NCBI GenBank assembly: GCA_963749835.1
Contig: CAVVOD010000003.1
Span: 656,721-720,720 of the forward strand
Source: an uncultured Acidobacteriota bacterium
GTDB lineage: Bacteria > Acidobacteriota > Vicinamibacteria > Vicinamibacterales > 2-12-FULL-66-21
DNA: 64,000 nt
Direction of reading: 5' to 3'
Each line of letters opens with the position of its first letter. Position 1 is the first letter of the stretch. The notes under the pieces were generated by a model, which saw only the letters and a list, made by a program, of their open reading frames with translations, was not told the DNA's origin and ran no database searches. Below are positions 51,890-64,000 of the stretch, one piece after another. The position numbers and the translations under genes are program-made.

Positions 51890-51982
51890 GCTCCCGGCTG
51901 AAGCCGGAAGCTACGAATGGGGCCGGACGACTACGACCGGGTAGGAATCCGGGGCCCGACTCCCGAGCCCCGAATCCCGATC
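51890..51982. repeat. hairpin + degenerate heptamer-array element (copy 1), abutting the nrdJ stop codon
   Basis: GCTCCCGGC-TGAA-GCCGGAAGC hairpin (51890-51911) followed by ...CCCGACTCCCGAGCCCCGAATCCCGATC. The reverse complement CGTAGCTTCCGGCTTCAGCCGGGAG matches CGTAGCTTCCGCCTTCAGGCGGAAG at 63370-63393. A separate 9-bp-stem hairpin lies at 51863-51883. Confidence 0.6.
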
Positions 51983-51984
51983 TG

Positions 51985-54775
51985 TTACGCGCAGCCGCTG
52001 GTCGTTCCGCAGTTCGCGCACTTGTAGCACGAACCCGAGCGCACCATGATCGACCCGCACGTCGAGCACGGCGGGGCATCTTCCTGGTTCTGAATCGCCG
52101 CGAACGACGAGGTCGCGCGCGACGTGATGGCGCCGGTAGCCGAGGCGCCTGCAGCAGCCGCGACGTCGAGCGGCAGCTGCTCCGGCGTGGTGAGGGTCTC
52201 CTCGCGGTTGTTGACCCCCGCGCGGAACTGCGCCTCCGGCGACAGGAACTTCGCCGCCATCCACCGGAAGATGTAGTCGACGATCGACTTCGCGAAGCGG
52301 ACGTCGGGGTTCTTCGTCATCCCCGACGGCTCGAAGCGCACGTGGCTGAACTTGTCGACCAGATCCTGCAGCGGCACGCCGTACTGGAGCGCGTAGCTGA
52401 TCGCCTGGGCGAAGGCATCGGCAAACCCCGAGATGGTCGACCCTTCCTTCGCCATGACGAGGAAGATTTCGCCGGGCGTCCCGTCCTCGAAGAGCCCGAC
52501 GGTGATGTAGCCCTCGTGGCCGGCGATGTCGAACTTGTGCGTGAAGGCATGCCGCTCGTCCGGCAGCTTCCGGCGGCGCGGGCCGGGATCGACGGTCACG
52601 GCGGCCGCCTTTTCCTTGTCGCGCGCCGTGTTCAGCGGCTGCGTGCGCTTGCTGCCGTCACGATAGATGGAGACGGCCTTCGCGCCGATCCGCCACGAGT
52701 CGATGTACGCCTGCTGGATCTCGTCAACGGTCGCTTCCTTCGGCACGTTGACGGTCTTCGAAATCGCGCCCGAGAGGAACGGCTGCACGGCCCCCATCAT
52801 CCGCACGTGGCCCATGTAGTGAATCGAGCGCACGCCGCGCGACGGCTTGAACGCGCAGTCGAACACCGCCAGGTGATGATCCTTGATGTGCGGCGCCCCT
52901 TCGATCGTCTCGTGCTCGTCGATGTACTCGATGATCTCCTTGATCTGCGTGGCGCCGTAGCCCAGCTTCGTCAGCGCCATCGGCACGGTCTGGTTGACGA
53001 TCTTCATCAACCCGCCGCCGACCAGCTTCTTGTACTTCACCAGCGCGATGTCCGGCTCGACACCCGTCGTGTCGCAGTCCATCATGAAGCCGATCGTCCC
53101 GGTCGGCGCCAGCACGGTCGCCTGCGCATTGCGGAACCCGTACTGCTCGCCGAGCTCGATGACCTCGTCCCACACCGCCTTCGCCGCCTGGAAGAGGTCC
53201 GACGGCAGGTGCGTGCGATCGATGTCCTTGAGCGCCGCGCGATGCTTCCGCATCACCCGGATGAAGGGCTCCTTGTTCTTCTCGTATCCGGCGAACGGAC
53301 CGCCGTGATCGCGCGCGATCTTCGCCGACTGCGCGAACGCCGCCCCGTGCATCAGCGCGGTGATCGCCGCCGCATAGTCGCGACCCGAGTCGCCGTCGTA
53401 GGGAGCCCGCGCGACATGAGCAGCGCGCCCAGGTTCGCGAAGCCGAGGCCGAGGGGACGGATACTCGTGGCTGTTCTTCGCAATCGCCGGCGTCGGATAG
53501 CTCGAGTTGTCGACCAGGATCTCCTGCGCCGTGATCATCGTCCGGCACGCGGCTTCGAACGACACCGAGTCGATCTCGCCGTCGTCCCTCAGAAACTTCA
53601 TCAGGTTGATCGACGACAGGTTGCACGCCGTGTCATCGAGGAACATGTACTCGGAGCACGGGTTGCTCGCGTTGATCCGCGCCGTGTTCGGGCACGTGTG
53701 CCAGTCGTTGACCGTCGTGTCGAACTGCATGCCCGGATCGCCGCAGATGTGCGTCGCTTCCGCGATCTGGTGCATCAGGTCGCGCGCCTTGTAGGTCTGC
53801 ATCGGTGCGCCGTCGCGCACCGCCTTCGTCGTCCACTCCCCGTCGTCCATCACCGCGCGCATGAACTCGTCGGTCACGCGCACGCTGTTGTTCGAGTTCT
53901 GGAAGAAGACGGATGAATACGCCGGACCGGTGAACGAGCCGTCGTACCCGGCGTCGATGAGCGCCCAGGCCTTCTTCTCTTCCTCGACCTTGCAGTTGAT
54001 GAACTCTTCGATGTCCGGATGATCCGAGTTGAGGATGACCATCTTCGCGGCGCGGCGCGTCTTGCCGCCCGACTTGATGACGCCGGCGAACGCGTCGAAA
54101 CCCTTCATGAACGAGACCGGTCCCGAGGCGGTGCCGCCCCCCGCCAGCAGCTCGTGAGACGAACGGATCGCCGACAGGTTCGAACCGGTGCCCGATCCGA
54201 ACTTGAAGAGCATCCCCTCGGTCTTCGCCAGGCCGAGAATCGACTCCATCGTGTCCTGCACGGAGTTGATGAAGCAGGCCGAGCACTGCGGCGCCTTCTC
54301 GAAGCCGACGTTGAACCAGACAGGACTGTTGAACGCCGCCTTCTGGTACACGAGCAGATGCTTGAGGTCGTCGCTGAACGCCTGCAGATCGTCCTCGCTC
54401 GCGAAGTACCTTCTGCTTCACCGCCCAGCCCGTAATCGTGTCGACCACGCGTCCGATGAGCTGCTTCACGCTCCGCTCACGCTCCGGTGTGCCGATGGTG
54501 CCGCGGAAGTACTTGGAGACGACGATGTTGGTGGCCTGCTGGGACCAGAAGCGGGGGATTTCGACGTCGCGCTGCTCGAAAACTACGTTCCCCTTCTCGT
54601 TGCCTATCACGGCCGAGCGGACGTCCCATTCGACCTCGTCGAATGGATCGAGCCCCTCACGTGTGAAGAACCGTTCGTATTCGAGTCCAGGCACGCTCGC
54701 CGGCCCGGATGCCGGTGTGCGGGCCAGAATCTCCGTGCTGGTGGATTCCACCTGCGGAGCTGCGCCTCTCTGCAT
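51985..54775 (-). CDS. nrdJ: class II (adenosylcobalamin-dependent) ribonucleotide reductase, one internal frameshift
   Basis: N-terminal ORF (from ATG 54775, RBS GGAGGGG) reads ...VVSKYFRGTIGTPERERSVKQLIGRVVDTITGWAVKQK. After a shift near 54408-54412 it continues YFASEDDLQAFSDDLKHLLVYQKAAFNSPVWFNVGF...SNPCSEYMFLDDTACNLSSINL.... The tail is Cys-rich (CSTCGSIMVRSGSCYKCANCG). Confidence 0.9.
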
Positions 54776-59361: not shown

Positions 59362-60303
59362 ATGAGAAATTTCCTGATGGTGGTGAGTCTGACCGCTGCA
59401 CTCGGCGCCTGCTCAAGCAAGAACACGCTCGACATCCCGACCGGTACCGAGGTGACGGTTGAAAAAACCGACGGCGTGACGGTAGCCGGGCGTCTGGTCG
59501 ACGTCCAGGCGGACAAGGTCATCGTCGAGAGCCGCGACGGCGTGAAGACGAGCGTCCCCCGCACCCTGATTGCCTCGATCCACCCGACGCCTGCCGCGAC
59601 TCCGGCGACGGCGGTGGACAAGAGCGCGAAGCCGTCACCGGCCGCTGCCGAGGCGCTGGCGCCGGCCTCGGCTCTCGTCCCAGACGACAAGCCGGCGACC
59701 CCTGGACCCGATGCGAAGCCAGCCACAGACGACCGGCCGACAGCGACGGCTGGCACGACGGACCGCAAGCCGGAGTACCGGGAAGTGACGCTGCCGGCTG
59801 GGACGACGCTGACCGTGGCGCTGAACTCGATCGTGGGATCCGACACGAGCCGCGTCGAGGATCCCGTGCACGGCACCCTTCGCCACGCCGTGCGCATCAA
59901 CGGCCTGCAGGCGCTGCCGATCGGAACGGCTGTGTCCGGACACGTGACCAGCGCGCAGCCGGCGGGCAAGGTGAAGGGGCGGGCATCGATCGGGTTCCGC
60001 TTCAACACCATCGAGCTTCCGGGCAAGTCTCGCGAGCCGATCAGTACGGCGACGTACTCGCGCACGTCCCGCGCGACGAAACAGAAGGACGCCACCAAGA
60101 TTGGCGTGGGCGCAGGGGCCGGGGCCGTCATCGGTGGGATCCTCGGCGGCGGCAGCGGCGCCGCCAAGGGTGCGGCCATCGGCGGCGGCGCGGGCACGGC
60201 TGTGGTGCTCTCCACCAAGGGGGATGAAGTGCGGATCCCGGCAGGTACGCCCGTCACCATCAAGTTGACCGCGCCGCTCACGGTTCAGGTGCCCCTGAAA
60301 TAG
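59362..60303 (+). CDS. lipoprotein with C-terminal glycine-zipper domain (hypothetical)
   Basis: The lipobox is MRNFLMVVSLTAALGAC. An A/P/T/K-rich linker follows. The C-terminus is GVGAGAGAVIGGILGGGSGAAKGAAIGGGAGTAVVL, a Gly-zipper. The track ORF starts upstream at 59185, but that stretch overlaps the promoter region. Confidence 0.7.
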   Translation: MRNFLMVVSLTAALGACSSKNTLDIPTGTEVTVEKTDGVTVAGRLVDVQADKVIVESRDGVKTSVPRTLIASIHPTPAATPATAVDKSAKPSPAAAEALAPASALVPDDKPATPGPDAKPATDDRPTATAGTTDRKPEYREVTLPAGTTLTVALNSIVGSDTSRVEDPVHGTLRHAVRINGLQALPIGTAVSGHVTSAQPAGKVKGRASIGFRFNTIELPGKSREPISTATYSRTSRATKQKDATKIGVGAGAGAVIGGILGGGSGAAKGAAIGGGAGTAVVLSTKGDEVRIPAGTPVTIKLTAPLTVQVPLK

Positions 60304-60304
60304 A

Positions 60305-60450
60305 TCGGGATTCGGGACTCGGGATTCGGGATTCGTTCTTCCGCCTGAAGGCGGAAGCCACGAGCCCGGATCCCCAATCGCGACTCTCCAGTCCAATCCC
60401 TGATCCCGAGTCCCGACGCGAGCCCCGAATCCCGAAGCCCGAATCCCGGG
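60305..60450. repeat. heptamer-array/hairpin element (copy 2, most regular)
   Basis: Left arm is 4 tandem GGGAYTC units (60307-60334). The central hairpin is CTTCCGCC-TGAA-GGCGGAAG (60338-60357). The right arm carries the complementary units (GATCCC, GAGTCCC, GAATCCC, GAAGCCC, GAATCCC; 60393-60447). It fills the gap between a stop codon (60301-03) and the next ORF (60455). Confidence 0.75.
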
Positions 60451-60454
60451 CCGT

Positions 60455-62672: not shown

Positions 62673-64000
62673 ATGCTCCGCATCCTCTACTTCGCGGACA
62701 TCCGTTTTCCCCTCGAACGCGCAAACGGAATCCAGACGATGGAGACGTGTTTCGCGCTGGCCGAGCGAGGGCACGACGTGGAGCTGATCGTGCGGCCGGA
62801 CACCGATAAGCTGGCGAGAGACCCATTCGAGTACTACGGGCTGCCGCCGTTGAAGCGCCTCTGGATTGAACGCGCGCCGACCAGTGGCCCCGTCGCCGCC
62901 CGGCGGCTCGGCTATCTTGCCTTCGCAGTCGGGCGTGCTGGCGGGAGCAAGCGTGCCGACGTCGTGTTCACCCGGGACCTCGGTGTGGCATCGTTGCTGC
63001 TGCGGATGCCACGGGGACTGCGTCCGCCTCTCGTCTACGAGTCGCACGGGTATGCGCCTGACGTGGCGGCCGCGCTGCCCGAGCTGATTGCCACCGCCGC
63101 GGTGCCTCCGCTAGGCAAGCTGCGCCGCCTCGAGCGTCGAGAGGCGCACGTCTGGCAGCGCGCCGAGGGATATGTCACGATCACGGCAGCCCTTGCGGCA
63201 GATCTCGTTGGCCGGTACGGCGAACGCCAGCGAGTCGCGGTGGTACCGGATGGCGTCAGACTCGGGGCTCGGGACTTGGGATTCGGGACTCGGGATTCTG
63301 GACTCGGGGACTCGGGACTCGGGGCTCGGGATTCGGGACTCGGGGAAACGGGACGCGGGATTCGGGACCGTAGCTTCCGCCTTCAGGCGGAAGACTCGGG
63401 AATGGCGACTCGGGACTCGGGATTCGGGGAAGCAGGAAGCGGGAAGCAGGAAGCAGGGAGCGGCATTCCAATCGTCGCCTACGCGGGCCATCTGTATGCC
63501 TGGAAGGGTGTCGACGTCCTGCTCGAAGCGCTTGCGCTCGTGCCGGCTGTTCGCGGATTGATTGTCGGCGGGCACGAGGCCGAACCGGATCTTGGCCGGC
63601 TGAGGACGCTGGCGGAGCGGCTCGGGATCGCTGCGCGGGTGACGTTCACCGGCCTCGTCGCACCTGCCAGGGTCGCGGATCTCCTTCGCAGCGCCACGAT
63701 CCTTGCGCTGCCGAATCCGGCCTCCGCCATCTCGAACCGCTTCACGTCGCCGTTGAAGCTGTTCGAGTACATGGCGGCCGGGCGGGCGATCGTCGCGTCA
63801 GATCTGCCGTCGGTCCGCGAGGTCCTGCACGACGACGTGGATGCGCTGCTGGTGGCGCCGGGAGATGCCGCTGCGCTCGCAGACGCCATCCGCCGCCTCG
63901 TCGCGGAGCCCGCGCTCGTCGAGCGGCTGGGGCGCCGGGCGGCCGAGGCGGCACCCGATTATTCCTGGGCCCGCCGCGCGGAGCGGCTCGAGGCGTTGTT
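62673..64000 (+). CDS. GT4-family glycosyltransferase, partial (runs off the right edge), with repeat-derived insertion in the inter-domain linker
   Basis: Absent from the ORF track because no stop occurs in the window. Hand translation from ATG 62673 is open to 64000. It reads MLRILYFADIRFPLERANGIQTMETCFALAERGHDVELIV...VVPDGVRLG-[repeat-encoded ~70 aa]-IPIVAYAGHLYAWKGVDVLLEAL...SPLKLFEYMAAGRAIVASDLPSVREVL. Confidence 0.85.
   Translation, partial: MLRILYFADIRFPLERANGIQTMETCFALAERGHDVELIVRPDTDKLARDPFEYYGLPPLKRLWIERAPTSGPVAARRLGYLAFAVGRAGGSKRADVVFTRDLGVASLLLRMPRGLRPPLVYESHGYAPDVAAALPELIATAAVPPLGKLRRLERREAHVWQRAEGYVTITAALAADLVGRYGERQRVAVVPDGVRLGARDLGFGTRDSGLGDSGLGARDSGLGETGRGIRDRSFRLQAEDSGMATRDSGFGEAGSGKQEAGSGIPIVAYAGHLYAWKGVDVLLEALALVPAVRGLIVGGHEAEPDLGRLRTLAERLGIAARVTFTGLVAPARVADLLRSATILALPNPASAISNRFTSPLKLFEYMAAGRAIVASDLPSVREVLHDDVDALLVAPGDAAALADAIRRLVAEPALVERLGRRAAEAAPDYSWARRAERLEAL
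63259..63468 (+). repeat. heptamer-array/hairpin element (copy 3) embedded in-frame in the GT4 coding sequence
   Basis: More than 14 GGGAYTC-like units surround CGTAGCTTCCGCC-TTCA-GGCGGAAG (hairpin 63374-63393). In the gene frame it translates as ARDLGFGTRDSGLGDSGLGARDSGLGETGRGIRDRSFRLQAEDSGMATRDSGFGEAGSGKQEAGSG, with no stop. Confidence 0.8.

Follow-up and report, generated by a model that had tools for sequence, protein, structure and literature searches.

Repeat DNA within a reading frame: G-rich heptamers and a GTAG-tagged palindrome probably tolerated in the interdomain linker of an acidobacterial GT4 glycosyltransferase

How does repeat DNA of a kind usually found between genes come to lie, in frame, in the middle of a glycosyltransferase gene, and what does it make of the protein? 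The question is raised by a 64,000-nt stretch of contig CAVVOD010000003.1 from an uncultured soil member of the Acidobacteriota (hereafter the window), in which a GT4 glycosyltransferase gene carries an array of G-rich heptanucleotide units and a short hairpin between its two domains (Table 1). The original prediction allowed two readings of this insert: tolerated 'exonisation' of an element resembling a repetitive extragenic palindrome (REP) or a miniature inverted-repeat transposable element (MITE), or a contingency locus in which gain or loss of a 7-nt unit shifts the frame. Our analysis favours the former. The linker is probably translated, slippage-driven, 'exonised' repeat DNA that is tolerated at a permissive site.

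The insert lies within a single gene. The frame that opens at 62673 is unbroken to the edge of the window, as had been claimed, and comparison with the ortholog P0001 places its end about nine codons further on. Pfam recognises Glyco_trans_4_4 and Glyco_transf_4 at aa 22-196 and Glycos_transf_1 and Glyco_trans_1_4 at aa 264-424+; both domains score over the curated cut-offs within one polypeptide, which marks the product as a GT4 enzyme of the GT-B type, and the insert falls between them just where it had been predicted to fall. There are more than 2600 homologs of the protein, the nearest solved structure being only 6KIH (E 3e-14), and AlphaFold2, working from 84 aligned sequences, models two well-folded GT4 domains, with a predicted template modelling score (pTM) of 0.82 and a per-residue confidence (pLDDT) in the domains that is mostly >90. 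At 118 of the 120 loci that carry both sequence anchors flanking the linker, the N- and C-domain anchors share one frame. One of the two exceptions, L064 (10586-10676), has no heptamer array, comes from an MFD-series metagenome-assembled genome (MAG) assembly and may owe its mismatch to an assembly indel error; the other has an anchor spacing of 56 nt. The alternative in which two genes are separated by an intergenic spacer is ruled out by the continuous frame, by this agreement in frame across loci and by the single GT-B fold of the model.

Table 1. Coordinates of the features discussed, in window positions
Feature	Position	Strand	Basis and remarks
GT4 glycosyltransferase gene	62673..64000	+	open frame of 442 codons, Pfam, AlphaFold2; leaves the window end
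Interdomain linker, repeat-encoded, 70 aa	63261..63470	+	between anchors ...VPDGVR and IVAYAGHLY...
GGGAYTC heptamer array A, ~15 units	63264..63369	+	Tandem Repeats Finder (TRF), unit layout; G-rich sense strand
GTAG-tagged REP hairpin, reverse orientation	63370..63393	+	GTAG 63370-63373, stem 63374-63381/63386-63393, loop TTCA
GGGAYTC heptamer array B, ~5 units, 3' of REP	63394..63428	+	TRF x5.1 at 63393-63428, unit layout
GGAAGCR heptamer array, ~5 units, encodes EAGSGKQEAGSG	63428..63461	+	TRF GGAAGCA x4.9
Intergenic composite element	60305..60450	.	between two + strand genes; TRF, pattern search
Intergenic element between convergent genes	51891..51980	.	REP variant + heptamer array

The suggestion that the whole linker is repeat-encoded was confirmed. 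The DNA for its 70 aa is made up of some 25 heptamers, first GGGAYTC and later GGAAGCR, and one hairpin with an 8-bp stem, CTTCCGCC-TTCA-GGCGGAAG at 63374-63393, which the frame reads as (R)SFRLQAE. For the first array TRF reports GACTCGG x15.4 at 63259-63368 together with a higher-order period of 36 (x3.0) that arises from a few 8-mers. The GGAAGCR array is identical in L161 and present in L162-L168, and is therefore common to the closest orthologs. What makes such a tract compatible with a coding role is the heptamer itself: it contains no stop in any of the six frames, and three units span 21 nt, so that all three sense frames give one and the same heptapeptide, G-I/T-R-D-S-G-L/F, which is hydrophilic and rich in Gly, Ser, Asp and Arg. 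A tract of this kind cannot bring a stop and can only shift the frame, and it is these properties, the invariant peptide, the lack of stops and the Gly/Ser/Asp/Arg-rich composition, that would allow it to be tolerated. Four of the six reading frames are open across the element, the REP hairpin unit being the sole source of stops. A frame scan bore out the claim that a second forward frame is stop-free, and moved the TAG of the third from 63370-72 to 63371-63373, where it is part of the GTAG tag of the REP.

The composition of the linker also sets it apart from its surroundings. GC content at the first, second and third codon positions is 0.73/0.63/0.63 in the linker vs 0.76/0.50/0.78 and 0.78/0.51/0.84 in the two domains, which is to say that both domains follow the usual high-GC codon-position pattern and the linker is flat. 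AlphaFold2 assigns residues 200-257 a pLDDT of <50 and no secondary structure. The flat GC profile and the low pLDDT fit evolution at the level of the DNA rather than of the codon, and a product that is predicted to be disordered.

We then consider where such linkers occur. In an alignment of 84 proteins, that is, the window protein and 83 orthologs, the window linker is the longest; orthologs without a repeat linker have 13-38 aa, mostly 15-24, a range that replaces the ~25-30 aa earlier taken to be usual for GT4 enzymes. Across the 120 anchored loci, the linker plus the IVA residues mostly spans 48-66 nt, and none of 80 loci from GTDB species representatives has a GGGAYTC array at this site. 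In a neighbour-joining tree computed without the linker columns every heptamer-coded linker falls in one clade of Vicinamibacterales (the window, P0001-P0008, P0010 and P0012), with vestigial linkers of the LGTRGSG type in sister groups; alignment with GT4 homologs thus bears out the view that the insert is lineage-specific. Nine alleles of the clade have linker DNA of 48, 75, 99, 102, 111, 135, 141, 168 and 210 nt (16-70 aa), all built from GGGAYTC and then GGGAAGC units with occasional 6- and 8-nt units, and all in frame with the G-rich strand as the sense strand. Within this clade the window allele is the only one with a REP in its array. The closest comparison is with L161, whose nucleotide identity to the window is 96.4% in the N-domain and 97.7% in the C-domain, with no indels in either; the two linkers differ by one contiguous block of 111 nt (37 codons) made up of heptamers, the REP and further heptamers. 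Given that the other alleles do not have the REP, a gain of 111 nt in the window lineage is the parsimonious reading.

The length variation bears directly on the contingency reading, according to which gain or loss of 7 nt toggles the gene between a full-length ON form and an OFF form reduced to the N-domain, and a surface glycan varies as a result. Several features would suit such a switch: the unit is not a multiple of three, tract length is unstable between strains, the gene is clustered with GT4, methyltransferase and PMT-type glycosyltransferase genes, and every allele has scattered units of 6 and 8 nt that might be scars left when an OFF form returned to ON. However, the frame is kept in each of the 12 distinct alleles that bear an array (14 if two vestigial ones are counted), and a search with the N-domain alone for truncated products found no frameshift-truncated close relative. 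The single truncated close relative, P0128 (89% identity), lies on the 1.2-kb metagenome contig L171, where (838-1081) the GT4 N-domain leads into a heptamer array, and the array runs straight on into a convergent gene that is unrelated, entering it at its 3' end. Either the contig is an assembly chimera or the array has been the site of a rearrangement; a frameshift is not involved. The tract has about 25 units of 7 nt and is imperfect, with 76% matches by TRF and a longest exact repeat of 17 nt within the linker region, and its place is the middle of the gene and not the vicinity of the 5' end. In a lineage of near-identical proteins P0010 and P0011 have 411 aa, P0007 has 432 and P0122 has 446, so that the strains differ by steps of +21 aa (63 nt) and +14 aa (42 nt). 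Length polymorphism among relatives, which had been proposed in multiples of 7 nt, is accordingly present, but the steps that persist between strains are multiples of 21 nt and keep the frame. The P0008 allele is unchanged on five contigs, three places being read from different sequencing runs. It is true that rare OFF subpopulations would be invisible in metagenome consensus sequences, and yet the balance of this evidence makes a phase-variable switch very unlikely. As a separate observation, the N-domain search also returned many truncated homologs on long contigs, which may have the same cause as the frame mismatches at the two exceptional loci.

The second component of the linker, the hairpin, can be placed more precisely by comparison with its intergenic counterparts. 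The intergenic unit is 24-25 nt long, CTTCCGCC-TGAA-GGCGGAAG-CYACG with a conserved tail, and the genic hairpin is its exact reverse complement, CGTAG-CTTCCGCC-TTCA-GGCGGAAG, carrying CGTAG at the 5' side and not CYACG at the 3' side; 22 nt are exactly shared with the reverse complement of 60337-60358. The hairpin pattern occurs at three sites in the window (51.9 kb, 60.3 kb and the GT4 gene) vs 0.01 expected. A perfect 8-bp stem with a 4-nt loop, as befits a REP palindrome, is found in the genic copy and at 60338-60357, and the copy at 51891-51910 retains seven of eight pairs, one paired position being altered on both sides so that CTTCCGCC/GGCGGAAG becomes CTCCCGGC/GCCGGAAG. The GTAG tag directly precedes the genic stem, its complement CTAC follows the stem at 51911-51914 and at five other loci, and the copy at 60338 has CCAC at 60358 in place of CTAC. 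Sixteen copies were found in 2.17 Mb (the window and related loci), three of them in the window, and at least five of the 16 are in frame inside genes, a proportion that describes one syntenic region sampled in many species and not a genome-wide rate. A crude regular expression for the HUH...Y..NP motifs of a RAYT gave no match in the 64-kb window, which is weak evidence either way, and Rfam at gathering thresholds gave no match there.

The coding copies of this REP are of particular relevance. At L111 (7154-7173) the REP is again in frame in the GT4 linker, ...DGVRVEGDFRLKPEATVTEATLTVGYAGHLY..., and the linker is of normal length. At L124 (5097-5200) it occurs twice as an inverted pair, in frame, in a loop of the membrane protein encoded upstream; at L065 (8991-9010) one in-frame copy lies in another loop of that protein; and at L106 (3871-3890) an in-frame copy lies between two CxxC pairs in the zinc-ribbon N-terminus of the methyltransferase encoded downstream. 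The copies at L124, L065 and L106 fall within inserts of ~23-38 aa relative to the orthologs in the window or L161, and among the coding copies the REP is read in each of its four open phases.

Between genes, the REP and the heptamers occur together in the window. Heptamer dimers give 18 matches there vs 0.22 expected, confined to the same three places as the hairpin, and the tandem 7-nt units with a G3 tract that TRF detects make these G3N4 heptamer simple sequence repeats (SSRs). The 60.3-kb element comprises (GGGAYTC)4 at 60306-60334, 3 nt past a stop codon and G-rich on the sense strand, then the REP with CCACG, and then an inverted (GARTCCC)n array at 60395-60448, which is antisense and closely precedes the next gene. 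The region 60300-60452 folds as one long hairpin with the REP near its tip (-84.4 kcal/mol, z -6.9), and the element is kept in L161 at 94.8% identity. The 51.9-kb element comprises the REP variant CTCCCGGC-TGAA-GCCGGAAG with CTACG at 51891-51915 and, at 51955-51980, a heptamer array that is G-rich on the minus strand and lies directly past the stop of a class II ribonucleotide reductase gene (51985..54351, -). A small Cys-rich open reading frame (ORF) beside this element proved to be merely the C-terminus of that reductase. The intergenic bias, the convergent pairing and the positions next to stops or starts are all seen in the window, and arrays in related loci are mostly intergenic. The genic element folds no better than shuffled sequence (z -1.4), and every heptamer in it has its G-rich strand as the sense strand. 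The proposal that genic and intergenic copies belong to one repeat family therefore held for the units, which are the same, and failed for the architecture, the genic hairpin being inverted and flanked by no inverted arms. Neither can the whole be treated as a single REP- or MITE-like element. It has two separable components, for the REP occurs without heptamers in L032, L065, L106 and L111, and beside other tandem repeats in L030 (CCAACCT-like), L055 (CAAACTT-like) and L002 (TTCCGGG/TTCGGGG). In L030 (20874-20960) and L055 (5887-5990) the REP is followed by tandem arrays of these non-G-rich heptamers, which suggests a recurring association of REPs with 7-mer arrays across species.

Since the REP within an array is seen in the window alone and no independent copy of the window allele was found in the collections searched, it may be asked whether the 111-nt block, or indeed the full array length, is a mis-join in the assembly, the true allele being L161-like with a 33-aa linker. 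The change of locus inside such an array on contig L171 lends this some weight. Against it, exact repeats are no longer than 17 nt within the linker region and no longer than 22 nt (the REP itself) between it and the rest of the window, and usual k-mer assembly would be unambiguous with respect to the window. A detour of this kind would also require two crossovers and an in-frame, stop-free landing. Array-free contigs of other species have in-frame REPs in the linker and in neighbouring genes, and without the 111-nt block the linker would still be heptamer-encoded. We therefore regard an assembly artefact as unlikely.

A further alternative is that the linker is adaptive. Either the long Gly/Ser/Asp/Arg tract itself or an mRNA structure, such as a G-quadruplex or a hairpin, would then be functional, and the length variation would represent tuning; domain spacing could be adjusted, translation could pause between the domains or a partner could be bound. 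The tract has persisted in one clade over ~76-97% nucleotide identity with its G-rich strand always sense. Canonical G-quadruplex motifs are confined, on both strands of the window, to the five heptamer arrays, those in array A (G3N1-7 x4) lying at 63264-63294 and 63306-63366, and related heptamers form G-quadruplexes in vitro (PMC4692102). With its G-quadruplex option ViennaRNA places a quadruplex in the linker array at a small gain (-83.5 vs -81.6 kcal/mol). Set against these points, linkers of 16-70 aa among close relatives show no favoured length, most orthologs manage with 13-24 aa of non-repeat linker, the linker has no signature of codon-level selection, and no function has been shown for this class of repeat even in the organisms in which it was first described (PMC4692102). 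We regard an adaptive linker as very unlikely. A related and more speculative idea, to which we attach only a small probability, is that the heptamer tract is a real device, either a slippage switch based on a unit that is not a multiple of three, which would silence the GT4 gene in subpopulations and leave the 6- and 8-nt units as reversion scars, or a sense-strand G-quadruplex array that paces translation between the two domains. If this were true, G3N4 arrays would be functional and not junk, which would fit their recurrence at a syntenic site with species-specific loops. Our literature search brought up no specific account of heptamer or G-quadruplex repeats from Acidobacteria.

Tolerated exonisation of repeat DNA is the reading that, taken together, the data best support: the insert is monophyletic, its units are of the intergenic type, it has no codon-GC signature, the model predicts disorder and REPs have entered frames in this region repeatedly. 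We infer that slippage drives the tract and that the linker, far from being an adaptation, is neutral or merely put up with. In the sequence of events that we propose, a G-rich heptanucleotide microsatellite (GGGAYTC, then GGGAAGC) would have taken hold in the inter-Rossmann loop in the ancestor of one clade of Vicinamibacterales, the founding array belonging to the G3N4 class whose usual home is just after stops or just before genes. Replication slippage would then alter tract length rapidly, and selection would retain alleles whose net length is a multiple of three, whether through higher-order steps of 21, 36 or 42 nt or through 7-nt steps offset by 6- or 8-nt units. After its split from the ~97% identical relative, the window lineage would have gained the 111-nt block of heptamers and GTAG-tagged REP, either by REP transposition or by gene conversion from an array-flanked intergenic copy, with the REP coming to occupy one of the two frames that, in its orientation, avoid the TAG. 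The product would be a full-length GT-B enzyme with a disordered hinge, predicted at 58-70 aa.

Some points weigh against this interpretation and should be borne in mind. The 210-nt allele rests on one assembly, and the switch of locus within the array of L171 indicates that assemblies can break or mis-join at such places. The direction of the 111-nt event is read by parsimony, and it is from sequence that the linker is predicted to be translated and the enzyme to be active. A long linker or an mRNA G-quadruplex may bring a selective benefit, and the irregular units of 6 and 8 nt may just as well be scars of frame loss and restoration.

The GT4 gene has a conserved setting. The orthologous loci belong to the Acidobacteriota, order Vicinamibacterales, and share a gene order of sigma-54 response regulator, Gly-zipper protein, Rce1-like protease, a membrane protein of 475-485 aa and the GT4 gene, followed on its 3' side by a methyltransferase, three further GT4 genes and a PMT-type glycosyltransferase. 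In the 350 nt that precede the Rce1-like gene, G3N4 arrays are present at 12 of 95 loci vs ~1 expected from their overall density. These sites include the 60.3-kb element of the window and those in L002, L015, L016, L018, L024, L051, L071, L161, L162 and L168, and their loops are species-specific (GGGATTC, GGGTTCC, GGGAAAA, GGGACAA, GGGAGAA, GGGGCGT) with a constant G-tract periodicity. The longest array seen, 32 units (220 nt) of GGGACTC/GGGGCGC at L027 (2097-2316), is found ~8 kb upstream of the GT4 gene and appears to be intergenic, since no convincingly flanked ORF runs across it.

Other ortholog linkers have peculiarities of their own. There is no general enrichment of stems, those of at least 8 bp occurring in 12 of 120 linkers vs 51 of 473 control segments, and only a few specific linkers have clear palindromes. 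In L006 (10672-10712) and L084 (~679-719) another long palindrome is present, GTCAGAYCTC...GAGATCTGAC(CCC), in which as many as 13 bp pair perfectly. The GT4 linker of L022 (10598-10801) is 68 aa long; it has repeated ACGCGGAT-type motifs and lacks both heptamers and a REP, and a similar motif cluster occurs once in L075 and also inside the L064 linker. Neither the L006 palindrome nor the GCGGAT-type motif of L022 was shown to be a dispersed family in the sampled loci. The P0049 linker (LTSSPEPRAPSPG, taken from the protein alignment) includes PEPRAPSP, a peptide that the C-rich strand of a GGGGCTC array would encode, and may represent an independent short array in the opposite orientation. 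The linker peptide, used as a query, matched one protein, a low-complexity sequence of 96 aa that has no Pfam domain and is uninformative about other host genes.

The interest of the locus lies in a frame-invariant coding microsatellite, in length variation at strain level and in recurrent in-frame REPs within one operon. It offers a clean natural case of non-coding repeat DNA that has turned into protein sequence, and because a 7-nt microsatellite of this kind is stop-free and reads alike in every sense frame, only the length of the tract is left for selection to act upon. A protein linker can as a result vary more than 4-fold (16 to 70 aa) among close relatives, and the GT-B interdomain linker, together with loops of neighbouring gene products, has accepted in-frame palindromic insertions more than once. 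G3N4 heptamer arrays and GTAG-tagged REPs are hereby extended to the Acidobacteriota, where they are physically combined. There are practical consequences too: tracts like these are likely to be places where metagenome assemblies break or mis-join (compare L171), and, being open in several frames, they may give rise to spurious ORF calls.

It remains to compare the locus with systems that are already known. In Neisseria and Haemophilus, lipooligosaccharide glycosyltransferase genes carry phase-variable tetranucleotide or poly-G tracts, and heptanucleotide phase variation is reportedly found at HMW1A. The present gene resembles these in having, within a glycosyltransferase gene, a unit that is not a multiple of three and a tract whose length varies among strains; it differs in that no OFF alleles were seen, the tract is imperfect, its place is a mid-gene linker and strain steps are multiples of 21 nt. 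Rickettsia palindromic elements (RPEs) are said to lie in frame within protein-coding genes, a description credited to Ogata and colleagues in 2000. RPEs are selfish palindromes that occur between genes as well as in frame inside them, where the host ORF is kept and permissive surface sites are occupied, and in this the two are alike; in-frame palindromic elements that the locus resembles are also known from other bacteria. RPEs are, however, 100-150 nt long with a conserved peptide, whereas the linker is mostly slippage-prone microsatellite with a 24-nt REP, and, unlike an RPE, it is hypervariable in length between strains.

The closest parallels are found separately for each component. G-rich heptamer SSRs have been described as GGGAATC in Xanthomonas and GGGGA(C/T)T in Nostoc (Rehm et al. 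2015, PMC4692102), and the acidobacterial arrays share with them the 7-nt unit with a G3 tract, the dispersed occurrence with a strong intergenic bias, arrays of ~4 units, convergent (+/-) pairs able to form stem-loops and wide length variation among close relatives; the positions of the window arrays, after stops and antisense before a start, also agree with the preferences reported there. The unit (GGGAYTC or GGGAAGC) and the phylum are different, the G-quadruplex is predicted here from motifs, and the ~25 sense-strand units within an ORF encode a whole linker in combination with a REP, although a sense-strand location inside ORFs is under-represented for this class (PMC4692102). For the hairpin, the parallel is the GTAG REP super-family, defined by short palindromes that leave a terminal GTAG unpaired, among which in-frame intragenic copies that add tens of amino acids are documented (Di Nocera et al. 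2013, PMC3733652, where RPEs are also discussed). Our REP is likewise a short GC-rich palindrome with an unpaired GTAG, found in both orientations and at times in frame within ORFs; a preference for sites downstream of genes, between unidirectional or convergent ORFs, may be a further point in common. It departs from those families in its 16 copies in the 2.17 Mb sampled, in the CCACG in place of CTACG at the 60338 copy, in its frequent flanking by heptamer arrays, an association not described for them, and in that no RAYT gene was identified by the crude motif test of the window. The linker is thus a combination of two known kinds of repeat, and calls for no new mechanism.

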